64,000 nucleotides of DNA from positions 135,966,001 through 136,030,000 of the forward strand of contig OZ024741.1 of assembly GCA_964016885.1 (NCBI GenBank), read 5' to 3'. The notes beneath the pieces were generated by a model. It did no database searches. It was given only the letters and a program-made list of their open reading frames with translations, and was not told where the DNA came from. Position 1 is the first letter of the stretch; every line of letters begins with the position of its first letter. The translations under genes were made by a program, and so were the position numbers. This DNA comes from Eledone cirrhosa. Taxonomy: Eukaryota. Positions 10,914 to 59,505 of this stretch are shown one piece after another.

Positions 10914-10968
<55 letters not shown>
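10914..10968. repeat. (AAT)n tract, 3' tail/target of Tx1-like element 1
   Basis: Directly abuts the element end ...aataaagaaatc on the minus strand. Confidence 0.95.
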
Positions 10969-10970
<2 letters not shown>

Positions 10971-11230
10971 TTTCTTTATTAACCACAAGGGTTTACATAA
11001 AGTAGACATTAAGGACAGTGCAGGACAATGCAGGACGGTACAAATGGGCATTTCTGCGTGTAAAAAAACAAAAACAGAGGATGTAACAAAAATAACAATG
11101 AAAATAACAATGAAAAATTCCCCAATAGGGGGGAGACTTCGGAGGGACATTTGTGGAGAAAGCCCAGTAAAAAGCCACAATGACCCTGACCACCAAGGCA
11201 AGTGCCCTCTCCCAGTTTTCCACCTTTAGT

Positions 11231-14200
11231 TTACAGATATATACTCAGAGTCGGCCCATTCACTCGGGCCATTCTTGCTTCTCTCACCCATCTTTCAACA
11301 AAATGCTGGGAAGAGAGCACTTCCCTCTCTACTCTGATTTTCCTTTTCAAATGAAATTTGAAAAAGTCAATCAGAGCATCACCGAAGAGGTAAGTGCTCG
11401 TCTTCAGCCCTTTCAAACGTGTCCACCATACTATCTCTTTCGCCATGGCCACCAGGCAGATAAAAACTGCCTGCCCTTCCCGGCTAAAGAAGGAGGGCGG
11501 GGCAATCCTCACGATGGACTCAGATGATAGCCGGATCCGTCCTAAACGCGACAGCAGGTGTTCGACATAAACCCACAAGTCAGCAATTTTCGGACACTGG
11601 ACGAGTGCGTGCAGGACGGTTTCGTCGCCCTGCGCGCATCTCGGACATGCCCGGCTGACGGCACCTCCATGCCTGTAGAGTTTATCCCGAACTGGCAAGG
11701 CTCCTCGGTAGCACTGCCAGGCCAGAGATTTCTGGAAGTTGTCCATAGGCCCCGGCCCGAAAGTTCTTCCGAAGAGATTGGCTAGTTGATTTTCGTCGAC
11801 GCCTAGAGTTTCCCCAAGTACGTCGTCGCTCTTCCCCTCCACTAATCCTCTATAGAACGCCGAGGTGGAGTTGCCACCGATCACATTGCCCGATTGGTCG
11901 AGGGCTGTGAGCGCCTGAAGACATTCCAGTCTCCAGGCGCTCCCTCTCGGTCTTCGCTTGACCCAGGACTGCAGCTCCGTCAAGGAAACGAGCTGGAGAA
12001 ACACGCGTCTAGCAAACGGCGACCACACCTGATCACCGTCGAGGAAGAGGTGGAGATGTCGTAGCCTGAGCGCGTGCCTGCGCATCATCAGCCACGGCAT
12101 GCCCAGCCCTCCACGTAGCGGGTGTTGACAACAGATCGACCGCCTGACCATCGGAGCGCGTCCCTTCCACAAAAAGCGAAAGAGAAAACGCTCCAGCGCA
12201 GTCAGGCGAGGCTTAGGACAAGGTACGACGGTCAGGCGGTAGCAGATGACGGACGCGATGTACGCGTTAGCCACCTCCGCTCGACCTTTCAGGGATAGCT
12301 TCCTCTCGGCCCATTTCTGGGTGAGAGAAGCCACCCTGCTCGTCACCTCGTCCCAGTTTTTGTCCGTCTGGAGGTCCGGACCGAACCAGACCCCTAGCAA
12401 TTTAACCGGTCCGTCCGTCCAGCGTCCGACGACGCTGTTGGACGGCATGGACCTGCCTCTCCAGGTGCCGAGCTGCAGGCCCACTGACTGTTCCTGGTTG
12501 ATCATTGCTCCTGTCACCGCTTCGTATTCTCTTAGTGTAGTGCCGATCGCCTCTATGTGTTTGGCGTTCGACACCACTACGGTGACATCGTCCGCATATG
12601 CTGACACGGATCTTCCGCATCCTAGTTCGCGCGGGACTCCCCTCAACGTCTCCAGTTTGTGCAGTAATGGCTCGAGAGTCAATACGTACAAGAGGGACGA
12701 GAGGGGACATCCTTGGCGGACCGAGCGCATGATGTTGAACGGTTCCGACAGGTGACCGTTCACTCTCACCACAGAGCAGATGTCGCTGTGCATGGCAGCG
12801 ATTCAGCCTCTGAAGACGGGCCCAAAGCCAGCCGCCCTCAGGACTGCCGCTAGGTAACGATGGTCGACCCTATCGAAAGCTTTCGATTGATCTAAATTGA
12901 TCAAGGACCCACCCGTGCCAGGTTCCTTAGCTACCCTCTCTATGATGTATCGCATGAGGTGGAGGTTGTCGTGGATGGATCTGTCGGGAATGGCGCATGT
13001 CTGCGCCTCTCCCACCAGACCACCAACGACAAGCGCCAACCTCTTTGCTAGCACCTTGGCCAAAATCTTGAACTCTGTGTTTAGCAGAGTTAAGGGCCGG
13101 AAATTATCTATGTTATCCCCCTTGTTCGGATCCTTTCTCAGCAGTGCCACCGCTCCTCGGCTCACAGAACTGGGAATTCTCCCGTTCTGTTGCCAGTTGC
13201 AGTAGACGTCCGCCAAGAGGCCTCCGAATAAGTCTGGCATCTGTACGTAAAGTTCATAGGGCAGACCATCCAAACCAGGCGATTTACCCCTTGTGCAGCC
13301 AGTCATTGCCTCCCTTACTTCAGCGGCTGTTATCGGCTTTTCGCAACACTTCGCCTCAGTGGCCGAGAGCCGCGGCAGTCCGTCGAGGTAGACACTAAAG
13401 TCCATCCCTCTACTCGGCCCACCGCTTCCCCCGAACAGCTGAGCGAAGTGTCGCTGAAAAGCTTCACACATTTGCCCGGGATCGAGTAGCATGCGCCCGT
13501 CGTGGTCCACCAAAGACCGGATCGTGGCTTTGTTGCCACGACGCGCCTCCGCCACTCGGGCCCATTGAACGGCTTTCGTCCCCTCGTGTCTGAGAGCACG
13601 CACCCTTGCTCTGACAACGCAGCCTTCGTGCTTTGCATTGAAGAATTGGTCAAGGACCAATTTCGCCGCAAGCACGTCGGTCGCAATGCCTTTGCTAAAC
13701 GCCTCGTCTAATTTTCTCTATTGCTAAAGCCTTACTAAACCTAATCGATTCTATTCTAATCGTTCTTTTCAGAGCAAACCACCACTTGTTGTTGACGATG
13801 GCCCCCGTCAACGCCCGCTCAACTAGTTCGCTAATCCGGTCTCTGTAGGCCTTGCGCGCTGGTAAGGACGCGTTTAGCTTCCAGTAGCCGGGTCCTCGTC
13901 TATGAAGCCTATCTAAGTCAAGCACACAGATCACAAATTTGTGGTCCGTGTAGCTGACTATCTTGAATTGTGGACAGCCTATGCTAGACCTATCTATTTC
14001 CCTACAAAATACTTTATCTAGATATGATCTGGATGACCCTATGCGATTTGTCCAAGTCCACATTGGCACATTCGGGAAATCCAATCGGTACCTGTCAGAC
14101 AGTTCAAAACGCCTGAGCAGGTTGGTGAGGCTCTTGCACCCTCCACCCCTATCCGCTAATCCCACACAGTCCCAGCGTGCATCTAAGATCCCGTTCCAGT

Positions 14201-14621
14201 CGCCCACTAACACTAAAGAGCGGGACGTTCCAAGAAAGGTCTCCAGACGCCGGAAGAAATCAGGCCGCCCTGCTCCTGTCGGGGCATAGACGGCCACTAG
14301 CCTGAAAGCTTGCTCGTCTCCGCTGGTCACGTCCAGCACCACCAGCTTACCCTCTGGGTCCAGGAAGATGGCCCGTATGGCGAGATCCAAACCTCTCCGA
14401 AAAAGCACAGCAACTCCTCCACCCGATCCAGGACGGCTGGGAGATGCGTACACATCGTAGCCGCCGAAGATCGGTGCGAAGGCCCGTGCTTCGGATATTC
14501 TGGTCTCGCTGATGGCCACTACATCTATGTTTAGTGACCTGAGGTCGTTGAGCAGGTGACCCTGCTTCCATGACGACCCCAAGCCACGCGCATTTATGCT
14601 GCCTATTCTGAGTGAGGTCAT
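11231..14621 (-). pseudogene. ORF2 (APE endonuclease, reverse transcriptase, C-terminal CCHC) of Tx1-like copy 1, disrupted
   Basis: Motifs SINARGL, SETR, VYAP, GDWN, TDH, GYWKLN; QGCPLS, YADD; CPRC..ETVLHALVQC. A ~29-nt deletion relative to copy 2 lies near 13710 and a TGG>TGA stop at 12803..12805. Confidence 0.93.
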
Positions 14622-14656
14622 GTTTAAAATAGAGTGGAAAAGATGGGAAAGACCAC

Positions 14657-16757
14657 TTACCGTACTTTTGGTAGAGGAGGGATGGTTTTTACATCCCTTT
14701 TCACTTGATCGTCTGGTGAAGGGACCGTTGAATCGTCCCTTCGGTTGGTCGTCGGCTCTTCTAAGAGAATGTCTGAATATACTCTTCGATTGATGGTTCC
14801 TCCTAGGTCCCTGAAATCACCAACTGCGTTGGTGAATTTCGTTTTAATGTTTGTGTATTGTTTCTGTGCTATTTTTAGCAGTCTTATGTTAGTTGGCTTT
14901 TTGATTGGTGCTGGTATTATGTAGTCCTGTTGTGAAATGTCTGTGTATTCAATTATGTAAGTCATTAGTTTCTTGTTGTGTGTATTTATTGCCGTGCATT
15001 TGTTTTTCTGGGGGTGGGGTGTGGTTCTGCTATTTTCTTGTCGTTGTTGCTGGGTGTGTGTGTTTTGTTGTTGTGTTTGCGATGTTGGTGCTTGAGGTGA
15101 TAGTGTTGAAGGTGTTGTTGGCGGTGGGGTTGTCGCCGGTGGTGATGGTGGTGCTAGTGTGGGTGGTGATGGTGTTGGTGGTGTTGCTGCTGTGGGTCTC
15201 TTTGCAGTAGACTTTACCCTTTTCTCATTTCTTTCCTCCCTTTTCAAAGGCGACGATGCGCTGCTTCTGCGTTTGTGCCTTCTTACGACCTTTTGCCATC
15301 TCTCTCCCACCTCACACTCCATGTCTGATTCTGTGAGGTCGGGGAGGGGTACCAGCTCCACTCTTTCACTTGTTGTTGGTGATGTTTGCACTGGAGTCTC
15401 TGTTGCAGCTGCATTTGGTATTGCTGTTGTTGTTGTTAATATTTCCACTGCTGCTGCTGTTTTTGATTTCCGTGGCGTGGGTATGGGTGCCACGGACCTA
15501 TCGTTCCTGGTTGCCGCTTGTCCTGTTGCTGGTAGCCGTGGAGCCGGTTTCGGAAGGAGGGGGGGTTTCTCCTTTCTCAGGGTCTTCTCGTTGCAGAAAG
15601 CCCTGAGGTGAGTCTTCGATCCACAGCGAAAGCATTTCGGGCGTTTTCCCTCAACACTTATGGGCAGTTGAGTGCCGTTATCGAAGTCTATCACATCCGG
15701 GATAGCTTCGATGCACTCCTGGTTGGTTTGGATTAGCATCTCAATGGAGGTGCCGACCCAATCTTCTCTTACTTTTTTCTGTACTTGCAGTACAGTTGTT
15801 TTGTCCTCGATTCCGACGAGGACAGATGCGGCCAGCCAAGAAGGGGCCATTCCGGGGGGGGACGTGGGTCAGTTTGACCCTCACAATTTTTTGCCCGCAG
15901 TAGGAGGGCACCAACACCATTTCCTCGCTCCTTAGGGTCACTACTGATTGGGCCTTTGCCTCCTGGGGTGTGGCAAAAAGTACGTCTACGGTGGCATATC
16001 TTTTGCCTCGGGTGATGTGCGTTTTCCGCTGCCACACAGACCCCAAGGCTTTTTGTATCTGAGCCTCTGTGGCTCTTTCCACCCTACGGGATATTGTATT
16101 TATTGTACGGTACGTGACCGTATAGTGCTGTTGGGTTTCGAAAAAATTTTCCGCTGCCTTGCAGATTGCTCGGTGACCGTTCTTTGTCACCATCTTCTTC
16201 GCTTCCTCTAATTCCTCATTTGTTATGAGGATTGTTTCCAAGTTTTTTGCAATACCTGCAAATGAGATTGGTTTTTCTTTGCTGCTGTTGTTGTTGTTGT
16301 CGTCAGAGCTGCTGGTACTTTTGTTGTTGCTGCAGGTACTACGACTACTGCCTCCGCCGCTGTTGCTGTGGTTGTTGTTGCTGTTGCTGCTGCTAATGCT
16401 GTTGTTGTTTATGCTGCTGGTGATGCTGTTGCGGCTGCTACTGTTGCTTTCATTGTCACTGTTGCTGTTGTTATTACGGCTGCTACTGCTATTATTCCTG
16501 ACGTCAGACGAATGAACTGGGTTTTCGTATTTCCCGCACACCTGTTTCGTCGCTGTCGTCGTCGTCGTGGAGAAACCTTGCACGCTTTGCACGAGACTTT
16601 TCTTTTCTTTCGTCGCTTGCGAAAGAGAAGGGAGGGAGAGAGACACATTTAAAGAAGGGAGGGAGAGAGACAATCTTCTCTCTGCTGTAGTGACGATTGA
16701 GGAAAAAGAAGACGGAATGAGTGGGAGTGACCTATGCAAATTCTTTTTCGTAGCCAA
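14657..16757 (-). pseudogene. ORF1 (gag-like, CCHC zinc knuckle) of Tx1-like copy 1
   Basis: CFRCGSKTHLRAFC knuckle. One frameshift at the G run near 15855-15861. The likely start is TTG at 16757, positionally equivalent to the ATG of copy 2. Confidence 0.8.
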
Positions 16758-16973
16758 GTTGTTTTTTTTGTTTAAAATAAATATTGGGTACAAAACCCCA
16801 ATAAGCAGTTATTTAACCCCGAAGGGCCAAATAACGGGCAGAAAGACCCCTCTCACGAGGAGGAGGGTGTTTTTGTCTACAAGTTGGTCTAAGTTTTAAA
16901 CAATTTACAATTGTTAAAGCGTTCAAAATTTACAGTCCCTTACAGAGCCGAGCCTCCGTCAACCATAGCATTC

Positions 16974-17021
<48 letters not shown>
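16974..17021. repeat. (AAT)n tract separating the two Tx1-like elements
   Basis: Seen directly. Confidence 0.95.
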
Positions 17022-17023
<2 letters not shown>

Positions 17024-17297
17024 TTTCATTTATTAGCCACAAGGGCCGACATGTAGGGGACAATACAAAGACAGGGACAGTGGGGGTTTACAATAAGGTC
17101 GAGTAAAAGTGCACAATGGCAAGACTAATTTAACAATGAAAATATAAAATATAAAATAAACTATGCAAAATATAACAAAATAAATTCCCCGATAGGGGGT
17201 GGACGACCCTGGGGTGATTCGGGTACCCCACCAATCCTGAACCACACTGCGCTTCTAGAGCACCCAGGAGAGCACCCCTCTCCTCAAGTTAGCCAGC

Positions 17298-20200
17298 CTA
17301 TAGGCGCATGGTCAGAGTAGGCCCATTCACACGAGCCATTCTTGCCACATTCACCCACCTTTTAGCAAATGTACTGGGGGGCAGCACTTCTCTCTCCACC
17401 CTCACCCTCCTTTCCAGGTGAAACTTGAAGAAGTTGATGAGGGATTGGCCGAAGAGAAAAGTGTCTGTCTTTAGTCCTTTCAACCTGGTCCACCATATAA
17501 TCTCTTTCGCAACTGCCACCAGACAGAGGAAAATGTCCTGCTCTTCCTGACCTAAGGAAGGTGGCGGCTCGATCTTCACTATGGACTCGGCCGATAACTG
17601 GATTCGTTCCACACGCGACAGTAGCTGTTCGACATAACTCCACAAGTCAGTAATGCACGGACATTGGACAAGTGCGTGCAGAACGGTTTCGTCGTTCTGT
17701 GCGCATCTTGGGCAGGTCCGTCTGACAGCACTTCCGTGCCTGTAGAGTTTATCCCGAACCGGCAGTGCCCCCCGGTAGCACTGCCAAGCGAGGGATTTCT
17801 GGAAATTGTCCATCGTCCCCGGCTCAAAAGTCCTCCGGTACAGACTGGTCAGTTCGACTTCGTCGAGGCCCAAAGCTTCTCCGAGTGCGTCATCGCACTT
17901 GCCCACCACTAATCCTCTATAAAACTCGAGAGTGGAAGTTCCACTGATCGCATTGCCCGCTTGGTAGAGGGCAGTGAGTGCCTGGCAACATTCCAGGTGC
18001 CAGTCACCCAGATCGGTCTCTTCTTGACCTTGGACTGCAGCTCAGTCAAAGAAATGAGCTGCGGAAAGGCCCGTCTGTTCACACCTGTTCACCATTGAGG
18101 CAGAATATCTGGAGATGTCGCAGCCTCAACGCATGTCTGCGCATCATTAGCCACGGCATGCCCAGCCCTCCGTGTAGAGGGTGCTGGCAGCAGATGGACC
18201 GCCTCACCAACGGAACTTGTCCCCTCCACAAGAATTTGAAGAGGAGCCGTTCCAACTTGACGAGGCGCGGACGGGGGCAAGGCACGACGGTTAGGCGGTA
18301 ATAGATGACGGACGCGATGTACGCATTCGCCACCTCCGCGCGACCTTTCAGTGATAGCTTCCTCCCAGCCCATTTTTGGGTGAGACTGGCTACTCTGCTC
18401 GTTACCTCGTCCCAATTCTTTTCCACCTGGAGGTCTGGTCCGAACCAAACCCCGAGCAACTTTACTGGTCCGTCCGTCCAGCGCCCCACGACGCTGTTGG
18501 ACGGCATGGGCTTGCCTCTCCAGGTTCCGAGCTGCAAGCCCACCGACTTTTCCGGGTTAAGTTTGGCTCCTGTCAACCTTTCATATTCTTTCAATAAGGT
18601 ACCGACCACCTCGATTTCTGAGGTGTTCGACACCATCACGGTGATGTCGTCCGCATAAGCCGACACCGCCTTTCCACGTCCCGGTTCGAGCGGGATGCCC
18701 TGCAACAGCTCCAGCTTCCGCAGTAAAGGATCGAGAGTCAATACGTACAGAAGGGAAGAGAGAGGGCACCCTTGACGGATCGATCGGGAGAGCCGAAATG
18801 GTTCCGAGAGGTGGCCATTAACTTTGACCACCGAGCGTGTGCCGCTGTGCATTGCAACGATCCAGCTTCTAAAGACAGGGCCGAAGCCAGCTGCTTTGAG
18901 GACAAACTCCAGATACCGATGGTCGACCCTATCGAATGCTTTCGATTGATCTAAATTGATCAGTGCCACACCGAAGCCAGGTTTACACCCTACCCTCTCT
19001 ATGATGTATCGCATGAGGTGGAGATTGTCGTGTATGGACCTGGCTGGGATTGCGCAAGTTTGCGCCTCCCCAACCAAATCCTCGATGACAAGCGCCAATC
19101 TCTTTGCTAACACCTTGGCCAAAATCTTAAACTCTGTGTTGAGCAGAGTTATGGGCCTGAAGTTGTCTAATGTATCCCTCTTGTTCTCGTCTTTCCTTAT
19201 CAGCGTCACCACTCCCCTGCTCACAGAACTGGGAATACTCCCATTCTGCTGCCAGTTACAGTAAAGTGCTTCAAGGAGTTCGGAGAACAAGTCTGGCATA
19301 TTTACGTAAAGCTCGTAGGGCAGGCCATCCAAGCCTGGTGACTTGCGCCTCATGCAGCCGACAAGGGCGTCCTGAATTTCGGCTGAAGTAATCGGCCTTT
19401 CGCAGCGCTCAGCGTCGACCGTCGAGATGCGCGGCAAGCCGTCAAGGTAGGGACTGAAATCCGCTACTCTCTCTGACCCGCCACTCTCCCCGAACAACCG
19501 AGCAAAGTGCTGGCGAAAGGCCTCACACATCCGCTTGGAATCGCTTATCTCGTGTCCGTCTCGGTCCGCCAAAGACCGAATTGTGGTTTTATTACCACGC
19601 TGCGCCTCCACCACGCGGGCCCATCGAACAGCTTTAGTTCCCTCGTTTCTCAGCGCACGCGCCTTAGCTCTGACAATGCAACCTTCGTGTTTGGCATTGA
19701 AGAAATGGTCTAATGCCATTCTCGCCGCTAGCACGTCAGTTGCGATGCCACTACAAATAGCCTCGTCTAACTTATCTACCAGCTCCCCCTCCTTTCTATT
19801 TTTCTCTAACGCTAGTTCTTTGCTGAACTCTATCGAAGTTACTCTAATCTCTCTTTTGAGAGCCCCCCACCATCTGTTGTTGATGATCCCCCCTGTCAAC
19901 TTTTGCTTAACTAACTTATTGACTCGGTCCCTGTAAGCCTTACGTGCCGGAAATGACATGTTCAGCTTCCAGTAACCCGGTCCTAACCTACGCGTTTTAT
20001 TTAGGTCGACCGTACAGATCACAAATTTGTGATCTGAATAGGCGACCGTTTTAAAAAGTGGACAGCCCACACTATTTCTATCTATTTTCCTAATGAAGAT
20101 TCTGTCTATAACGATCTAGATGACCCCATTCGGTTGGTCCATGTCCATACTGGCACATTGGGGAAATCTAGTCGATACCTGTCAGACAGTTGGAACTGGC

Positions 20201-20708
20201 TGAGTAGGTGCTTGAGGCTTTTGCACCCCCCGCTCCTATCGGCTACTCCCACACAATCCCAGCGTGCGTCTAAGATGCCATTCCAGTCCCCCGCTAACAG
20301 TAAAGGGCGAGACGTACCCAGAAAGGTCTCCAGGCGCCTAAAGAAGTCAGGTCGTCCGGCCCCTGTAGGGGCGTAGGCGGCCAGCAGTCTAAAGGCACCA
20401 CCTTCGCTACTGCTCACATCCAAGACCACCAACTTACCGTCCGGGTCCCGGAAGATCGACCTTACCTCGAGATCCAGTCCTTTCCTAAACAGCACTGCCA
20501 CCCCACCCCCCATCCCCGGCCTGCTAACAGATGCGAAGATCTGATAGTCGTCGAAAATGGGGGCTAGTGCACGCGTGTCGGAAATTCTGGTCTCGCTTAC
20601 GGCAATCACATCCATTTCCAGCGACCGGAGGTCGTTGAGCAGGCGACCCTGCTTCCAGGGTGACCCCAGGCCGCGAACATTTACACTTCCTACTCTTAAT
20701 ATGGCCAT
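17298..20708 (-). pseudogene. ORF2 (APE-RT-CCHC) of Tx1-like copy 2, disrupted
   Basis: ORF pieces 20106..20708, 18079..20070 and 17298..17909 are collinear with copy 1. Frameshifts near 20110 and 18080-18005. Confidence 0.92.
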
Positions 20709-22702
20709 ATTGGTAAGCTAAGAGAGAGAGAGAGGGAAGGTTTACTTACCTCCCGAGTCTTGTGAAGGTCGGGTGGTTCGACCTCCATGGTTGGTGGGGT
20801 TTCTTTTGGGAACCCCTTTAAAAGTCTTGATGTGGGTTTCACATTCGGGTTTCCCACGTCTTGAGGAAAGCTCTCTCGAATTTCTTTGAAAGAATTGAGT
20901 GACATTCGGACCAGAAGCAAATCTTCTGGCACACAAAATGTGCTCATTTCAAAAATCTCCCCCTCTGTTTGAATGTCCTCGCTTCGCGCTAAGAGGGCCA
21001 TCAGTTTATCGTTGGCCCTCCTGACAAGCACGAAGTTTTTAACATTTTGTTGGTGTGGTTTTATTTGTTTTCGTTTTGGTGAAAGTGGTGGCGATGGTTT
21101 TGGTGGTGTTGTTTCGAGTATGTCTATGTTTGTTGTAGGAGTGGTGTCTGCAATTTCAGGTATTTGTGTGTTTATTTGTACTTGTGTTTGTTTTGGTTGT
21201 TTGCGTTTCGGGGATTGTGGAGGTGGTGTCGATGTTGCTGATGGTACTGATGTTATTGGGGGAGTGTCTGCGTTAGTGGTGTCTGTATTTTTTGTTGTGT
21301 GTGTTTTTGTGTTTTGTAGGGGCTTTTTTTTTTGTGTGAGTTTTCTCTGTTTTTTTGCGCTTTTGGGTTTTCCTTCATCTTCGCTGCTGGAAGACAAAGG
21401 GTCTGTGTCTGTGAGTGTCTCTGTGTCTGTGTGTGCGTTTATTTTTTTTTTTGTCTATGTGTATAGTTGGGGGGGGGGGTAGGGGGAGTGGGAGAGCTTT
21501 CCTCGTTTTCTCCTTGGATTGGTTTTGGTGTTGGTGGTGGTCCGGCTGATTTTGATGTTGGTGTCCGTGTTTTTGTTGATGTTGTTTTTGGTGGTGGTGG
21601 TGGTGCAACTTTCCGTGCTGACACTGGCGTTGGCAACAAAGGAGGTTTGCGACCCCCTGCATTTTTGCGCTGAGGGCAGAAGGCTTGAAGATGCGTGGCT
21701 TCCCCGCAAACGAAGCAGCGTGGCCTATTCCATCAATCATTAGTTGGATTGTTGTCCCGTCCTGCAGGCGGGCAAAATCTGGGATGTTATTTATATCCTC
21801 CGGTTTCATTTGGAGAAGAATCTCCAAATCTATTCCGGACCAGTCTTCTCTCTCTCTCCTTTTGATGTCCAGGAGGGTGGTGTCTGTCCCCTCCTCGATT
21901 ACGCATCCCAGCAGCCACCATATGTTCATTCCTGGTGGGATGCTGGGAATGCGTACCTTCACTGTCCTTTTACCCATATAGGACGGATGCATGATAATGC
22001 GTTCTGTTCTGCAGGGGATCACCGAGTGCTTAATAGCGAGGGCCTCGGATTTGAACAGTACCGAGATGGTACCGAACTGTTTGCCTCTTGCTTTGTACTC
22101 TATGTTACTTCCGATGTACTCCAACGCAGCCTCTACCTCTGCTTGGCTCGCAAGTTCCACTTTTCGTGTCTGCACCGAAATACATCGAAAGAGCACCGTC
22201 CTCCTTTGCATGGCCGCTATTGCCTCGTCCGGGATGGTCAGGTTTGCCCAGGACTTCTCCCGTTTAATTAGCCTCCACGCTTTGGCTAACTGTTCGTCTT
22301 TATCGCTAATATCAATATCGATATTCAATAAGCGCTTTGTTTTTGCTGCTGCTGCTGCAGCAAATGTGGTGTTTCTGATGCTCTTATTGTTGTTGTTGTC
22401 ATTCTTGCTGTTGCCACCGCCATCCTTGTTTACATTGAAGCTGTCGGTGTTTTTGTCGTTATTGCTCTGAGTTGTTGTTGTTGTGGTGGTGGTGGTGGTG
22501 GCGGTGGTGGTGATGTCGTTTTCAGATGTACTGCTGCTATGCCAGAAGATTGTGATGGTAGCTTTTTAGTTTTGCCTTCACATTCAGTAGAGTGGATGAC
22601 AGGCATGACTGTAGCCGTCATAGTCGTGGTGAAATCTGCAGTGGCTGCCTTTAAACTTTTGACCTGAACGTTGTTCACCGTTTCAAGGTCGAAAATTTCC
22701 AT
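20696..22702 (-). pseudogene. ORF1 of Tx1-like copy 2, several frameshifts
   Basis: ATG at 22702. Shifting frame near 21725 gives RPRCFVCGEATHLQAFC...KPPLLP, matching copy 1 RPKCFRCGSKTHLRAFC...KPPLLP. The C-terminal block aligns with copy 1. Confidence 0.8.
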
Positions 22703-22927
22703 AATTTTCTTTTGGTGGGGAAGCGATTTTTTTTCGAAGATTTTAAAAATAAATCTGAATATTCGGGCTTAAAGCCCGAATATTGAGAGGTATCCCTCTC
22801 TTTAAATCAAGATGTGTACCTTAAGTTTCGTTAATGACAAGAAAATACAAAAAAAGACACTTTAAAACAGCTTAAAGCTACGAACCGTTTCCCCCGCAGA
22901 CTTGTCTGTCTTCACACATGTGCGGCC

Positions 22928-22986
22928 AATAATAATAATAATAATTGTTTCTACTTTAGGCACAAGGCCAGAAATTACCCAGTACA
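22928..22986 (-). mobile_element. 3' stub of Nin-type SINE with (ATT)n tail
   Basis: Minus strand tgtactgggtaatttctggccttgtgcctaaagtagaaacaattattatt matches the SINE 3' ends at 46666..46712. Confidence 0.85.
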
Positions 22987-24858
22987 AATAATATTAATAA
23001 AAGTTAATATTAATTGTGGAATTTTTCAGGGTGACTCTTATCACCGCTTTTATTCTGCATCGCACTTATACCATTAAGTAAAATGCTCAATGAAACAAAA
23101 CATGGATATAGAGTCTATGACAAAACCATTAATCACCTGTTCTACATGGATGACCTGAAACTATTTGCAAAAAATGATGAACAATTGCAAGGGCTATTAT
23201 CCACTGTGAAGCAGTTCAGTGATGACATTAAAATGGAGTTTGGACTGGATAAATGCGCCAAAGCAACGTTCACCAGAGGAAAGCTGCTGAAGAGTTCAGA
23301 CATTAATCTTGATCGGGGGAACGTGATAAGAGAGCTTGATCAAGAAAAAACTTACAAATATCTAGGTGTTTGTGAAGGAGACGGAATCAAGCACTCGACA
23401 ATGAGGGAAAGGATAAGGAAGGAATGTTACCGCAGAGTCAGAGCAATCTTAAGAACGGAATTGAATGCAAGGAATAGGATCGATGTCATAAACACGCTTG
23501 CCATACCAGTAGTAACCTACAGTTACAATGTCATCAACTGGTCAAGCACAGAGATCCGTAGGCTCGATACAAAAATCCGAAAATTCTTAACCATGCACAG
23601 AATGCATCACCCTAAGGCAGACATAGATAGAATATATCTCCCTAGGAAAGAAGGAGGACGTGGGTTAATCCAGTTAGACATTGCGTTGAAAACTGCAACA
23701 ATTGGATTATCCACATATCTAAGGGAATCACATGATTGGATGATCAAACTCGTTTTGAAACACGAAAGCACCAAAAGATCATATTCCATTACAAAAGATG
23801 CACAAAGATACAGTAATGGACTACAAATTTCAGAAGTCCCATTTACTGCTGAAATGGAAAACAGAGAAAAAGCAAAGCAGGTAAAAGTAACTGCAAAGAA
23901 AGAACTGCTACAGAAACTGGCTAAGAAATGGCGAGAAAAGCCTCTGTATGGAAAATACCCAGAGCGAGCTAACAATCCTGATGTTGACAAAACTTTAACC
24001 CATCAGTGGTTGGCATCCTCTGGACTGAAATCGGAGACTGAAGGACTGATTATATCGGCACAAGATCAGTGTCTGCCAACAAAAAATTACCAAGCCAACA
24101 TAATAAAAAATGGGTGCAGCCCATTATGCCGTGTATGCAAAAAACAACCAGAGACCATTGACCATATAATTTCAATGTGCAGTCCTATAGCTCCAACCGA
24201 ATACCTAAACAGGCATGACAGAGCTGCACAATACATACATTGGATAATGTGTAAGCATTTTGACCTGCCCCATCAAAAGAATTGGTGGGAGCATCAACCA
24301 CCTCCCATACTTGAAAAAGATCACATCTCAATCTTGTGGAACTTTAGCATCCAAACAGACCGAAAAATAGATGCAAATAGACCTGATATAATATTGAAGG
24401 ACTTTCAAAGGAGGGTATGCCTGCTAATTGATATGTCTGTTCCAATAGACAAGAATGTATCTATAAAAACATTTGAAAAATTGAGCAAGTATAAGGACCT
24501 GAAGATAGAAATTGGAAAAATGTGGAAATTGAGAACTAAAACAATACCAGTGGTTGTAGGCGCTCTGGGAATGATACCTAAGGGGTCTAACGACTACTTA
24601 TCGCAAATCCCAGGAAACCCGCGTATAGGAGAAATACAAAAGATAGTACTAATGGGAACTGCCCATATACTAAGGAAGATCCTGTCAATATAAGTACATC
24701 ACAAGTCTAAACACTAAGGATGCATGTGTGAATATGTATGTTCTTTCTTGAACATGGCGGACCTTGTTGTCTCTTGAGGTCACTGGTTGTGACTTGGTGA
24801 TAACTCGTATGAACATAAAGCAAGATAAATGCAAATAATAATAATAATAATAATAATA
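22987..24858 (+). mobile_element. 5'-truncated R4/Dong-clade non-LTR retrotransposon (RT + restriction-like endonuclease), copy 1
   Basis: GIFQGD (1-nt frameshift before SP), YMDD, CRVC..ETIDHIISMC, RHD, RPD..D..KYKDL. ORF ends at 24693; (TAA)n tail 24834..24858. Confidence 0.92.
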
Positions 24859-26346
24859 GAGTGAGAAGGAGCTGAATGTGCTTGTTGACACTGTCCGTAT
24901 TTTCAGCAATGATATATGTATGCAATTTGGTATTAGTAAGTGTGGAGTCCTTGTGATGAAGAGAGGTAAATTGAGCAGAAGCAACGGAATTCAGGTACCA
25001 TCAGGTGAGATGATAAAGAAAATTGACACTGAAGAAGGATAGAAGTATTTGGGTGTTCTGGAGGCTGATGACATCAAGAACAAAAAAATGAAGGAATTGA
25101 TAAGATCTGAATACATTCGGAGAGTAAGGAGCGTATTAAAATCACATCTGAACAGTAGGAATGCCATAAGTGCAATAAATTCCCGAGATGTGTCTATTAT
25201 TAGGTACAGTGCGGGAATTCTGAGATGGAATGTTGCTGAACACAAAGAAATAGATAGGAAGACTAGGAAGCTATTGACTATCTACAACATGTTCCAAAAG
25301 AGGAGTGATGTCGATAGACTCTACTTAAGGAGATCTGAAGGTGGAAGAGGTCTTATCAGCATAGAGGACTGTGTTCAGATGGAGAATAACAACCTACACA
25401 AATACGCGACTGATAGTAAGGAGCCAATGCTCAGAATTGTACTGAGGGAGAGGACAATAGACCAGGGGATGTCCAAGGAGGAAATAACAACAAGGAGAAA
25501 GAGCAGCCTTCATGAACAATCCCTTTATATTACCTTCTTTCAGAAAACTGAATTCAGAGATCCACAGACATGGAACTGGTTGAAAAGAGGAGACCTTAAA
25601 AAGGCTACAGAAGGAATGCTAATGGCTGCGCAAGAGCACACCCTCAAAACGAAGTGGTTGAAACACCATATTTACAAGGAGGAGGCTAGCCCACTGTGCT
25701 GGATCTGTGGAGAGAGAGAGGAGACTGTGGCTCACATTGTATCCGAGTGTAAACACCTAGCCCAGACTCACTATAATGGCTGGAGACATGATGTGATGGG
25801 CAGGGTGATCCACTGGCACCTATGCAAAGTAAACAATTTACCACATTCTGAGAAGTGGTATGAGCATAAGCCAGAGTCGGTGATAGAAAACGATCAGGTG
25901 AAGGTGCTGTGGGATTTTAGGATACAGACGGACAAGAAACTGGAACACAATAGACCTGACCTGGTGGTTTTAGACAAGGAAATATTATCGTGCCTGATTG
26001 TGGATGTGGCCTGCCCATTCGACACGAGAGTGCAAGAGAAGGAGAGGGAGAAAATTAACCGATACCAGGACTTAAAGTGGGAGGTAAAAAGCATTTGGAA
26101 CTGCCATGAAGTGAAAGTGGTCCCGATTGTCATAGGCGCACTAGGTACTATCTCAAAAAGTTTCCAGGGATGGTTAAAGAAAATTAGCCCCGCCGCGCTT
26201 TTTGGAACGCTTCAAAAGGCATGCTTGCTGGGAACAGCAAGAACCCTCCGATACGTCCTGAATATCTGAGACTGCAGGTACTGGCTTGATATTCATTTCA
26301 ACAAACTTTCCAGTTAACTAACATCAATGACTGAGACTCAAAGAAC

Positions 26347-48675: not shown

Positions 48676-48879
48676 CATGGAACTCCTTTAACCATCTTTT
48701 GATCTTATATTATATATACTCCAGTCCTACAAACTGTAGAGTGCTTCTTATCCGATATCTGCATTGCTTTATTGTACTACAATAAAACTCACCTCCTACA
48801 TTAACTTGCTCCTTAACGGTTGAGCGCTTACTCTCATATTGGATACCTTTTGATGGTCCTTCACCTCTTCTTCTACAAC

Positions 48880-51280
48880 ATGGATTATTACAACATAACC
48901 AAATCAACTAAAGACATTCCTATACCTGGTAAATCTGAATTCACCAAACTTCTTATTGAAAAAACTGACTCCTTCGTAAGAAGACTTAGATGGACAGCCT
49001 ATTTCTATGACCAGCGCCTTAAAGGGAACTTCGATACCAAAGAACATAACTTCCTCGATCATCTTTTTAATTCTAGACGGAATCCTCCTTCCAACAAAAA
49101 TCTAGTACAATTCGAGGAAGAATTAACTAAAATAATAAAAAATCTTAAATTCAAGAGATACCCTTACAAAGGACAAGAGCACCTTGTAAATCTCAAGAAC
49201 ACAATCTCTAACCTAAATTCCTCAAAAAATGTTTTAGTCCACTCTGACAAAACCAATAACTTATATGGTATTTCCAAGGATAATTATAACAACCTTATCC
49301 TAAAGGAACTTAGGAAAAAGTATCGTAAAACCAACCATGAAAATTTAGAATACATAAACCTTGAAGCCTCTGAGATTATGTCAAAACTTGGCATTGAAAA
49401 AAGACCGAACCATTCCTCCCAAGAACTCCGAGGATAAATCTCAAGGATCACAAAAACAATTTTCGCACTGAACTACCTGTTAGATTAATCGCCCCCTCTA
49501 AATCTGATCTGGGGGTTGTTAGTAAAGCCATCTTGGATAGAATTATCCCACAGGTTAGTTCTAATTGCTCTTCTTTGAACCTAAATTTATGGTTTGGTAC
49601 TTCTGAGGTGATTGGCTGGTTCAACAAATTGGATAATAAAAACAAACTAAAATTTATTCAATTTGATATTGCCAGCTACTATTCCTCCATTTCGCCTTCA
49701 CTTCTCAATAATGCTCTATCTTTCGCACTTAAATATTCTGACATCACCACAGATGAACTTCACATCATCCTCACCGCACGTAAAACCATCCTAGAGTTCA
49801 ACAACGAATATTGGACCAGAGCCGATACCGCTAACAACTTCGATATCACAATGGGAGCATCCGATTCATCCCAATTGACTGATTTAATTGGTATCTTCAT
49901 TTTGAACTCTTTGAGTCGGAAAATTCCTCAACTTCGCGGTGGAATTTATCGTGACGATGGACTCTTTACTATCCTAAATTGCAATATAGTTAACCTTAAT
50001 ATTATTAAGAACAATATACGTAATCTCTTTAACCAACATAACCTAAAAATTGAATTTGATAATAGTATCAAACTAGCTAATTTCTTGGATGTATCTCTTA
50101 ATCTTGACACTGGCCTATATTACCCTTACCATAAAAACAATGAGAACCTAAATTATGTTAACTTTAAATCTAACCATCCTACCAATATCAAGAATGCTAT
50201 AGTTAGTAATATTGGAAAAAGTATATCTAACATATCCTCTAATAAAAACATCTTTGATGCTAACGCCAATTACTATAATAACGCACTTTCTAAAGCCGGC
50301 TATCCAGATAAAATCAAATATAGTAAAGAAACAAATTCTAGAAAAACTTACAGTAGAATAATTAATCATGATCATTCCAATAATTTTAATAAAAGACCTA
50401 GATACAAAAACATAATCTGGTATAATGCTCCTTTCTCCATCTCTATTAATAACAATATTCCTAAATTATTTTTTAGTGCCTTAAATAAATGCTTCCTTCC
50501 CTCACATATCTATAGTAAAATATTTAACAAACACACCATAAAATTTTCTTATTCTACATCCTCCAATATTTCCAACATCATCTCTAAACACAACAATAAA
50601 ATACTAAATACTAAATCTCTTCCTTCCAACATTGAATTTCATAATAACAATAATAGTACTCCCGACGTCTTGTAAACCCTAGGCTAACTTCTGTAAACAC
50701 AAATACAACGTCAAACACAACTTCGCTAAATGTTCATAATCCAACTCTAAATCAAGAAACTATTATTCCTATTATTCCTATCGCAAACAACTTCTCCAAT
50801 CCAATTCCTTCTATAGATAACACTAGGTCACTCATTAATAATCTCTCTAATTGCAACTGCCGCACTAAAAATAAATGTCCTCTCAACAACCATTGTCTCG
50901 ATAAAAACTTAATTTATGAATGTAAAATTATAACTAGCACCAATTCCTTCACCTATTTTGGCTCCACTTCCACCTCTTTTAAAGCTCGTCTCTATAATCA
51001 TCATTCATCTTTCAAATACAAACTTAAAAGAACCAACACTGCTCTCTCAGAACTCATATGGTCCTTAAAAGACAAAAACATTAAATATACCATCTTTTGG
51101 AAGAGGGTTTCTTCTGCATCCTCATACTTGAACAGCTCTCTATCTAAAATCTGTAATCTCTGCCTAAATGAAAAATTTACCATTATCTCTAACCTAGATT
51201 CTATAATAAATAGACGTACAGATTTATTTTCTATCTGCCTGCATAAATTCCATAGGACTTTTCACAAAGTATACAGTTAA
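48880..51280 (+). CDS. Penelope-like reverse transcriptase + GIY-YIG endonuclease (two 1-nt frameshifts)
   Basis: ATG at 48880; SDKT, LKDHK..PVRLI, FDIASYY, MGA, YRDDGL, FLD; CNCR..CPL..CL..LIYEC..YFG..FKARLYNH..CNLC..CLH, stop at 51280. Frameshifts at the A run near 49400 and at about 50662. Confidence 0.88.
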
Positions 51281-57167: not shown

Positions 57168-59342
57168 TTAATTTGGTTGTAATTCATTTATGTTTATTGC
57201 CTCTGTGATTTGTCTAAACATTGCGTCTTTTCTGTGTGTAGATTCTATTTTTATTTCTATGTTCTCTAATTTACCCTTATGTTCTATTTTAGCATGTTGG
57301 TAGAGTACAGATGATTCTTTACTATCTTGAAGGTCTCGCCAGTGTTCATTTATCCGTTCCCCTATACTACGAGCTGTCTCACCTATGTACACTATATTTT
57401 TATCTCTACATTGTCCTTCTGTACATCTTATGCTATATACTACATTTCTAGTTTTACAGTTAATATGGGGGCTTAATTTACAGATTATACATTTCTTATC
57501 TATACAGGGAGGTCTTTGAAAAGGGTATGTCTTGCTAATAAGTGTTTTTCTGGAGGTACCTGGTCTTTCTACTATCTTAATATTGAGTTTATGTTTATCT
57601 AGGGCCCTTCTAAATTTGTAAGCTAATTCACCTCTAGGGGTTGTATCGATGAACATTACACTCTGGTATTTATTGCTATTATACCATGAGTTTATTCTAT
57701 TAGCCTTATTCCTAGTTCTTTCTATTCTATTCCAAAATTTGCTCCTATACAAGGGGCAGGTCCCATTTGTGTCATTATTTACCATTTTTTCCCATTTGGT
57801 TCTGGCTCCTCTATACACCCTGGTTTTATCTCTCTGATTGTAACCAGAGAACTGCATACGGTGGATGAAGTGTTGTATGTGTCTCTCTAGTTCTTCGGGG
57901 TTGCATATGCGGGACACGTTTCTCATCACCCGTACCAAATCCGCAATCAGTATGTTGATTTTGGTATGGTCCGAAACAGCTGAGTTTCGGTGGATCAGAT
58001 ATTTGGAAGTCATGGGTTTGGCATAATGGTAATGGAGGATTTGTTTTTTGTTATTAATGGTATCTAACCAGAGCTCTGTGTCTAGTACAGGTAATCGATG
58101 GTTGGGGTGTTTGCTTGGGTAGTCTATAGTAACTCTAATACTCTGGTGGATGGAGTTAGCTATTTGCTGGATGCTTTCCATTGTGTTTTTCTCTAATTCC
58201 TGACAGTTCTCTAATGGGGGTGTCTTAACTACGATGTTTATATCATCTACGTAGCGGGAGTACATTATCAGGGTTAAGCTGTCTTCTAATTGTTCTTTAA
58301 GTTTAAGTTTAAGTCTACTGTCCCACCATACCATGAATAAGTTAGCTATGTCGCCTGCAATGCTAACACCAATGGCTGCTCCTTCCTCTTGGGCATATGT
58401 TTTTCCATTAAATTTGAACATATATTCCTTAAGGGTTAATTTGATGCTGGCCCCTAGCACATGTGCAATCATTTTCTTCAGTTCATCGTGGTTTTCGGGT
58501 GTCCGTATGGCTCTGGTCCACCCGTTCCATCTATCTGTGTGGGTTTTCTTGGCCATTGAGGTAATGGTAGGTGGTCTGCCTCTTGCTGGTCTTGTAGAGC
58601 ACAGGTTGCTAAGGTCATATGTGTCTAGATAATTATTACTATAGGTAAGTTTAAGTAGGAGTCCCAGCTCACTGGTATCAATCCCACGGAATTCAACATT
58701 GCTCTCACTGATCATTTCTACGCATTTCTCCACAGAAAAATCCACGTCAATAGATGGATACAGGGACACAACATCCATACTACTTATTATGCAGTTTGTT
58801 AGGTCACTAGATCGGTTACCCTCGCTGATTCTGCTGAGGAGGCCCTCCGTGCTGTCACATACATCTGGGAACATTTCAATGATGGGGCGTATGATCAGGG
58901 AGAGGAAGTAGGACAGTCTGTAGTTACTAGCAATGTTAGCTCCACAGACTGGCTGTGTTGGTGGTCCTGTGACTGGGTCACTGCTCGTTTTATGGTCTTT
59001 TCGAAGCCCATACAACGCTGGCACGTCATTGTTCCAGGCCTGGAAGTTGTTGGCAGTCCTTTTGTTGGGCTGCATTATATTTGTCCACATCATATGGGCA
59101 TTGAGGGATTTTTCTCTATCCTCATGCTCTTGTGATGTTACTTCTCTTGTGTTAGTGATGTGGGGTTGCATTGCCTGGATGTAGTTTGGCAGACTGTCAA
59201 CCGACATTCTGCCAGACTTGTCTGTTGGAAAGCATGCTATCTCTCCATTACGCGAGCGCTGCATGAGCTTACGCAAGCCATTTGCAGATTTTTCTCCCAG
59301 TTGCTGGGCCTCCATTCTATTATGCTTCTTGCTATACTGTTC

Positions 59343-59345
<3 letters not shown>
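57168..59345 (-). CDS. Penelope-like RT + GIY-YIG endonuclease (N-terminally truncated; the TA-derived N-terminus in the ORF track is artefactual)
   Basis: TDKSG, LYGLRKDHK, MDVVSLYPSID, AIG, YVDD, VLD, KPM; C..C..C..C-NVVYSIRC..YIGETARS.ER.EH. A 1-nt shift at the end hides LNRKHEW. Confidence 0.9.
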
Positions 59346-59393
<48 letters not shown>

Positions 59394-59505
59394 CAAAGAA
59401 AGTGTGTTAAGAAACCAGGTGGACCAAAACTCACCAGAGTACTCGATACTTAGGGTAGTAGAGAGGGTAATAGTAAAAGACTCAGGACCCCTGACTTTTT
59501 CCTAC

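Follow-up and report, generated by a model that had tools for sequence, protein, structure and literature searches.

Two tandem LINEs and the conserved splice donor at the end of their ORF1

The window analyzed here is a 64,000-nucleotide (nt) stretch of the Eledone cirrhosa genome (GenBank assembly GCA_964016885.1, contig OZ024741.1, positions 135,966,001 to 136,030,000 of the forward strand), and it contains two Tx1-like long interspersed nuclear elements (LINEs) in tandem, each with a first and a second open reading frame (ORF1 and ORF2). At the end of ORF1, shortly before the start of ORF2, both elements carry a conserved 5' splice donor that is likely functional as a usable U1 site, and a message encoding ORF1 only remains plausible on the sequence evidence. 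The elements and their donors, in window coordinates, are:

10968..16975, minus strand: copy 1, a full-length Tx1-like LINE of family A, its extent set from family copies
17022..22930, minus strand: copy 2, a full-length Tx1-like LINE of family B, in tandem with and upstream of copy 1
11231..14621, minus strand: ORF2 of copy 1, with APE endonuclease, reverse transcriptase (RT) and zf-RVT
14655..14660, minus strand: 5' splice donor of copy 1, overlapping the ORF1 stop codon, phase 2
20744..20749, minus strand: 5' splice donor of copy 2, within ORF1, phase 0
10975..10980, minus strand: AATAAA ahead of the (ATT)n tail of copy 1 (equivalent in copy 2, 17034..17029)

An initial annotation of the window had pointed to a perfect donor at the ORF1 end of both copies and proposed that ORF2 may be an intron. 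The donors are present as claimed: copy 1 reads CG|GTAAGT at 14660..14655, 39 nt ahead of the ORF2 ATG (14621), and copy 2 reads AG|GTAAGT at 20749..20744, 41 nt ahead of the ORF2 ATG (20708). The window has 6 GGTAAGT heptamers against 7.7 expected, so the motif alone is not rare, and the significance of these sites rests on their position and conservation. Conservation across the family, which the annotation had named as a check, was assessed in 13 lineage representatives (A, B, C, D1 to D4, E, E2, G1, G2, J, and K; 67–96% identical) and in loci sampled with ORF2-start and RT-core patterns, both of which are blind to the donor. GTRAGT lies 28–46 nt upstream of ORF2 in all 13 representatives, and 33–45 nt upstream in 27 of the 30 loci recovered with the ORF2-start pattern; the other three comprise one locus truncated in the spacer, one with ATAAGT and one with GTAGGT. 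Within the representatives, donor positions +1, +2, +4, +5, and +6 are invariant and +3 is A in 11 and G in 2. Four-fold sites are invariant in 22 of 120 cases in the same set, and five invariant sites would arise by chance in about 2 of 10,000 trials if sites were independent, for representatives that were chosen after inspection. Exact donor flanks occur in at least 1218 copies of family A, and each of the first 100 listed has GGTAAGT.

The donor is not tied to a coding frame. In intact ORF1s with the CCHC knuckle in frame it lies in phase 2 (A, C, and E), phase 1 (D2), or phase 0 (B), and in family B ORF1 reads through the donor and stops nine codons later. Because it is kept in three phases, neither the stop codon nor the encoded amino acids account for it. 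Whatever the frame, its position spares the whole of ORF1 and cuts off the start of ORF2. The conserved 5' splice site expected of a U2-type intron over ORF2 is present. Among distant L1/Tx1-like elements from metagenomes, GTRAGT occurs within 90 nt of ORF2 in only 2 of 41, which makes the donor specific to this clade. Two ORF1 relatives from Argonauta hians (P0122 and P0130) end in GK or GKS, residues that a phase-1 donor would encode, which hints weakly at the presence of the donor in other octopods.

Six copies of family A (L061–L064, L066, and L067; full loci L415–L420) carry a G to A change at donor position +1, and none has a compensating change in the 3' arm of the helix described below. 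Three of the six form a small clade of full-length copies at separate loci with shared private variants, and full-length RNA can therefore be made and copied without the donor.

Other donor-like sites were observed as well. ORF2 of copy 2 has a second GGTAAGT at 20432–20438 (minus strand), where copy 1 has GGTAAGC at the matching place. Elements of D, E, J, and K (loci L149, L102, L150, L156, L367, L369, L101, and L116) have a further donor-like site close to their 5' end, approximately 1870–2170 nt ahead of the donor at the ORF1 end; no such site is evident at the 5' ends of A or B.

Candidate acceptors and a predicted helix enclosing ORF2

The donor and the pyrimidine-rich spacer that follows it are predicted to pair with the first approximately 55 nt past the ORF2 stop codon, in a helix of 35–55 bp whose arms would enclose nearly all of ORF2, from its start codon to its stop codon. 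Its arms in the two window copies are:

14632..14675, minus strand: 5' arm of the predicted helix in copy 1, containing exon end, donor and pyrimidine spacer; duplex −46.7 kcal/mol
11189..11225, minus strand: 3' arm in copy 1, a purine tract right after the ORF2 stop (11233..11231)
20711..20764, minus strand: 5' arm of the predicted helix in copy 2; duplex −43.5 kcal/mol
17242..17299, minus strand: 3' arm in copy 2, from the ORF2 stop (17300..17298)

When the 5' arm was paired with 353–377 windows per element, the window at the ORF2 stop was the best in all 13 representatives, with predicted duplex energies of −44 to −61 kcal/mol. Dinucleotide shuffles never matched the real duplex in 11 lineages (0/300), and did so in 2/300 and 4/300 in the remaining two. 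Cognate arms gave a mean of −50 kcal/mol vs. −34 for arms combined across groups, and in two subgroup alignments 7 of 29 and 8 of 31 pairs, respectively, differ in both partners. In the same pairing test the stop window ranked first in none of 19 distant L1/Tx1 elements. Predicted pairing extends over the whole donor in A, C, E, and G and leaves it within an internal loop in the lineages B, D3, D4, J, and K; as the donor is invariant even where predicted unpaired, the helix does not explain the donor.

The acceptor side is less clear-cut. The candidate sites are:

11054..11056, minus strand: acceptor proposed in the initial annotation for copy 1 (CAG), with a strong pyrimidine tract; AG at this column only in A and C
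17125..17163, minus strand: the two candidate acceptors proposed for copy 2, family-B specific
14207..14210, minus strand: candidate acceptor at +454 from the donor, the acceptor-like site with the best conservation within ORF2; AG in 13 of 13 representatives

The YAG trinucleotides proposed as acceptors in the 3' untranslated region (UTR) are indeed present, at 11056..11054, 17163..17161, and 17127..17125, and the 20-residue tail predicted for a spliced ORF1 of copy 1 reads as stated. These sites are, however, neither homologous between the two copies nor conserved in the clade. Six of 12 representatives (E2 left out) have no YAG in the last 136 nt ahead of the poly(A) signal, although sister copies of G1, unlike its representative, carry a CAG approximately 11 nt ahead of that signal. 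A conserved 3' splice site in the 3' UTR, as a U2-type intron would have, was thus not found. The acceptors proposed for both copies lie downstream of the 3' arm of the predicted helix and are transcribed after it. A scan of 44 conserved YAG columns placed +454, +2840, and the ORF2 stop at the top by pyrimidine content. Joining the donor to +454 leads to a stop within 5–29 codons in phase-0 and phase-2 lineages, and the candidate acceptor at the ORF2 stop is indifferent to frame. As a separate observation, the strongest acceptor-like AG in D and B stands immediately ahead of the ORF2 ATG, and could provide a route to an ORF2-only RNA.

The annotation had further suggested looking for processed copies that precisely lack ORF2, and none turned up beside the at least 1218 unspliced copies of family A. 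This search covered the donors of A, B, C, D1, E, and J, with G and D2 outside it. Exon ends of A and C followed by something other than the donor (7, 20, and 9 matches) differed only by point changes or short indels, as did the corresponding matches of J (1 and 7) and, apart from the hybrid joins described below, 10 of 11 and 10 of 10 of those of E and D1; for B there were 0 matches, in a search blind to exons starting with G. In a single E copy (L250/L381), the 128 nt that run from the donor up to a TTAG within ORF2 are missing; with one G too few for an exact splice this case remains ambiguous, and an acceptor-side search for the removal gave 0 matches. A structure like that of HAL1, the name given to an ORF1-only derivative, with ORF1 and the 3' end but no ORF2, was not seen at any of the six donors. 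With ORF1 as the query, a word-index search found nothing, and a profile-free search yielded 253 relatives, with no spliced tail among the 150 listed. Two candidates that pair ORF1 with pieces of ORF2 (P0221 and P0200) were rejected, as they look like decayed deleted copies. Contigs of five runs of unrecorded kind (X1, X2, X5, X6, and X7) aligned with copy 1 had no joint at the donor among the joints listed (15 of 1020, and 15 of 21 for X6); X1 does not reach the donor, one X6 contig crosses it unbroken (14595–16004), and these contigs carry no weight in the conclusions. Since an ORF1-only RNA would need to be copied in trans, the absence of such retrocopies counts only lightly against its existence.

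Hybrid joins between lineages and a proposed role of the donor

Copy 1 is itself a hybrid of two lineages, with the following features at its ORF1 end:

14703..14704, minus strand: join founding family A, between G-lineage-like ORF1 up to its own donor position (14704) and C-lineage sequence after CAG (14703)
14661..14703, minus strand: 43-nt ORF1 tail derived from the C lineage, between the old and the present donor

Similarity of C-type sequences to copy 1 starts exactly at −45 from the donor in 23 rows (20 loci), and six exon ends of G type can be aligned as far as −43 (best 77–80%). This base, 14704 in the window, is where G elements have their donor. The C sequence just before the join is CAG. 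Downstream of the join copy 1 is 92–95% identical to C, and upstream it is 66–70% identical to G over 400–450 nt. In a second join, seen in 18 of 28 matches, a D1 exon end is followed by J sequence: the upstream part is 90–93% identical to D1 vs. 66–72% to J, the downstream part 91–95% to J vs. 72–81% to D, and of the 100 J parents listed (of 866), 97 have CAG ahead of the join. Another 4 of the 28 matches show a third join, whose CAG lies 75 nt upstream. From a control site 23 nt upstream that likewise ends in AG, a single unrelated match and no join present in several copies were obtained. In every join the two sequences meet out of register, with a homologous segment duplicated, and ordinary recombination is therefore not favored as the source. 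Tandem arrays of these elements are common, with a spacing of approximately 6.08 kb, and would supply read-through RNA. We infer that the hybrid joins arose by splicing between neighboring elements; the join in copy 1 is likely a fossil splice junction from such read-through splicing, and the joins indicate that donors of this kind have been used by the spliceosome. Two observations of mixed or shortened elements stand apart from these joins: locus L098 has the ORF1 end and spacer of an E element together with a 3' UTR of J type and is either recombinant or nested, and in L079 and L110 the 5' end of both copies falls within the inter-ORF spacer.

In the reading that we favor, which is tentative and in our estimate falls somewhat short of an even chance, the clade keeps a helix-covered donor at the ORF1 end that probably splices ORF2 away and yields an ORF1-only message. 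U1 would bind the donor during the 3.4 kb of transcription that precede the 3' arm; transcripts committed within this interval would become ORF1-only RNA, and the remaining ones would be locked unspliced by the helix and serve as ORF2 message and template. In tandem read-through transcripts, the donor may occasionally join a cryptic CAG 22–75 nt upstream of the donor of the next element, which would swap ORF1 between lineages and retain the donor, spacer, ORF2, and matching 3' arm. Taken as a whole, a splicing switch in which one U1 site gives the ORF1-only message until the helix locks, and also trades ORF1 between tandem elements, is a more speculative proposal than the ORF1-only message by itself.

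Several results weigh against the splicing interpretation. On the acceptor side there is no outlier: none of +122, +454, +2840, and the stop of ORF2 ranked better than chance would allow. In phase-1 lineages a splice to +454 would continue in the ORF2 frame, which in D2 stays open for 1007 codons. The fixed TTA at this site is one of 18 fixed among 80 leucine columns, and the ORF2 stop is TAG in 11 of 13 representatives and TAA in A and C. At the six donors searched there is no ORF1-only retrocopy, and the donor-mutant clade shows that the donor is dispensable in cis over the short term. As to the joins, no close G parent of family A was found beyond the 66–70% identity given above, a single control site was run, joins 2 and 3 (though not join 1) came from a donor-anchored search, and the 2-nt AG common to every join also fits template switching. 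The 13-way alignment yields no consensus helix, and the cognate arm was the best partner in only 6 of 13 rows. Finally, besides the choice of representatives after inspection, the donor was located in them by best match.

Of the other explanations, the one that comes closest is that U1 docks at the donor without productive splicing and protects the nascent RNA from early 3' ends or aids elongation, with the helix hiding the site later and the hybrids being rare leaks. The lack of a conserved acceptor and of ORF1-only retrocopies agrees with this, as do the 0–6 AATAAA motifs within 2.1 kb upstream of the donor, and in Arabidopsis EVD U1 is described as suppressing premature termination (PMC5580714). 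The sense strand of ORF2 has only 0–2 AATAAA, however, so that past the donor U1 would have little to suppress, and in E and G1 the upstream part is free of AATAAA as well; moreover, docking does not demand a fixed position at the ORF1 end, and a donor-mutant master has left full-length offspring. The donor that spares ORF1, the few AATAAA motifs, and the donor-mutant copies together lead us to prefer the ORF1-only message, and we regard docking as possible but rather unlikely. The exact model of the initial annotation, in which an intron spans ORF2 and has the YAGs of the 3' UTR as its acceptors (junctions 14661->11053 and 20750->17160 or 17124), holds up in that the donor is conserved regardless of frame, and draws support from copy 1, where the CAG is second of 123 family-A YAGs by pyrimidine content and the spliced frame ends just ahead of AATAAA; the lineages without a TAG stop (A and C) are also those with the CAG, which amounts to one event. 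It fails to extend to the family, as AG at the copy-1 column is confined to A and C, half of the 12 representatives lack a YAG in the 3' terminal 136 nt, no genomic copy with either junction or otherwise processed to lack ORF2 was found at the donors searched, and the sites lie past the helix arm. In this exact form we consider it unlikely.

Still less probable in our view is that the helix is the selected feature, for control of ORF2 translation by ribosomes finishing ORF1 or for RNA packaging, and that the donor is incidental. The helix signal in 13 of 13 lineages would suit this, and a structure-dependent coupling of ORF1 and ORF2 is known for SART1 (PMC5972666), but in B, D3, D4, J, and K, where the donor is not predicted to pair, it is still U1-perfect, it toggles only between GTAAGT and GTGAGT, and spacer bases covary where donor bases do not. 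Lastly, a mini-intron of 30–53 nt that fuses ORF1 to ORF2 is disfavored and has hardly any probability left: an in-frame AG is found near the ORF2 ATG in A, B, and D1, but the AG is out of frame in D2 and absent from the spacer in E, J, and K. The fused RNA would encode RT and be copied in cis, and since no copy without the mini-intron was found at the donors searched, such a fusion is very unlikely.

Parts of this arrangement have counterparts in known systems. The Ty1/Copia element EVD of Arabidopsis makes a spliced shGAG RNA beside unspliced full-length RNA, and U1 suppresses early termination (PMC5580714). The Eledone elements resemble it in conserving a U1 site close to where the structural ORF ends; EVD, however, is a long terminal repeat element with a defined acceptor and premature polyadenylation shown by RNA data (PMC5580714), whereas the present elements are non-LTR, known from DNA alone, and carry a predicted long-range helix over the donor. 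SpIREs of human L1 result from intra-element splices in the 5' UTR or between 5' UTR and ORF1 and are termed evolutionary dead ends (PMC5860796). Retrotransposition of such spliced LINE RNAs left exact junctions in the genome (PMC5860796). The three inter-element joins have the same SpIRE-like form, with a donor position precisely on one side and an AG on the other, although template switching at AG could to some extent also account for them. Unlike in SpIREs, both ORFs are kept, and one join founded the family of at least 1218 copies. SART1 and L1 use termination-reinitiation between their ORFs (PMC5972666), and likewise have a short spacer and RNA structure near the ORF1/ORF2 boundary, but that structure is local (PMC5972666), whereas the partner strand predicted here is 3.4 kb away, past the ORF2 stop. 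A literature search, with subscription papers, supplements and Repbase entries outside it, gave no report of an inter-ORF donor or helix in Tx1 elements, and in a term search of a recent Octopus repeat annotation (PMC13282606) terms for splicing and ORF1 were absent.

If the proposed switch is correct, the spliceosome, and not reverse transcriptase alone, would create successful new LINE families in this octopod clade, and copy 1 would mark a likely splice-born family that has expanded to more than 1000 copies. The donor, the predicted lock and the exact joins would give a concrete and testable mechanism for two open questions, the balance of ORF1p to ORF2p in LINEs and the exchange of ORF1 modules.

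Classification of the elements and neighboring sequences

Reading frames are broken in both window copies, and (ATT)n runs lie on either side of both. Copy 1 and copy 2 are 74.6% identical over 3.75 kb (ORF2 and 3' UTR), and BLASTN gave no alignment between their ORF1s. ORF2 contains the Pfam domains Exo_endo_phos, RVT_1, and zf-RVT, has human L1 ORF2p as its best PDB match (E 5e-47; R2 at 3e-20), and its closest named database relatives are from cephalopods, with no named Tx1 reference among the 120 ORF2 matches listed. ORF1 has no Pfam match above cut-off, and the intact ORF1s of A, B, C, D2, and E have an in-frame CCHC knuckle motif. The elements thus have the features of the L1/Tx1 group: APE, RT, and a C-terminal zinc-binding domain in ORF2, and a separate, knuckle-bearing ORF1. 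Microsatellite targets are seen in the (ATT)n flanks of the window copies and of loci L415–L420, and in the (ATCT)n tails of D, E, J, and K. The label Tx1-like fits on the basis of this architecture and microsatellite targeting. Kibi and Koshi of the Tx1 clade target microsatellites and similarly combine two ORFs, APE and RT, and microsatellite insertion (PMC4494074); the targets differ, being (ATT)n and (ATCT)n-type runs here, and the accessible part of that article mentions no inter-ORF donor or helix (PMC4494074).

The 3' UTRs of all lineages have a conserved CCCC-TATT-GGGG hairpin, a U-rich tract and a CCCTTGTGG box ahead of AATAAA, which are likely RT recognition signals.

Elsewhere in the window, two frames bearing RT are located at 23035–26269 (plus strand), which we take to resemble RTE-type LINEs. 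Two more frames, at 48817–51280 (plus strand) and 57168–59501 (minus strand), combine RT with a GIY-YIG-like domain and presumably belong to Penelope-like elements.

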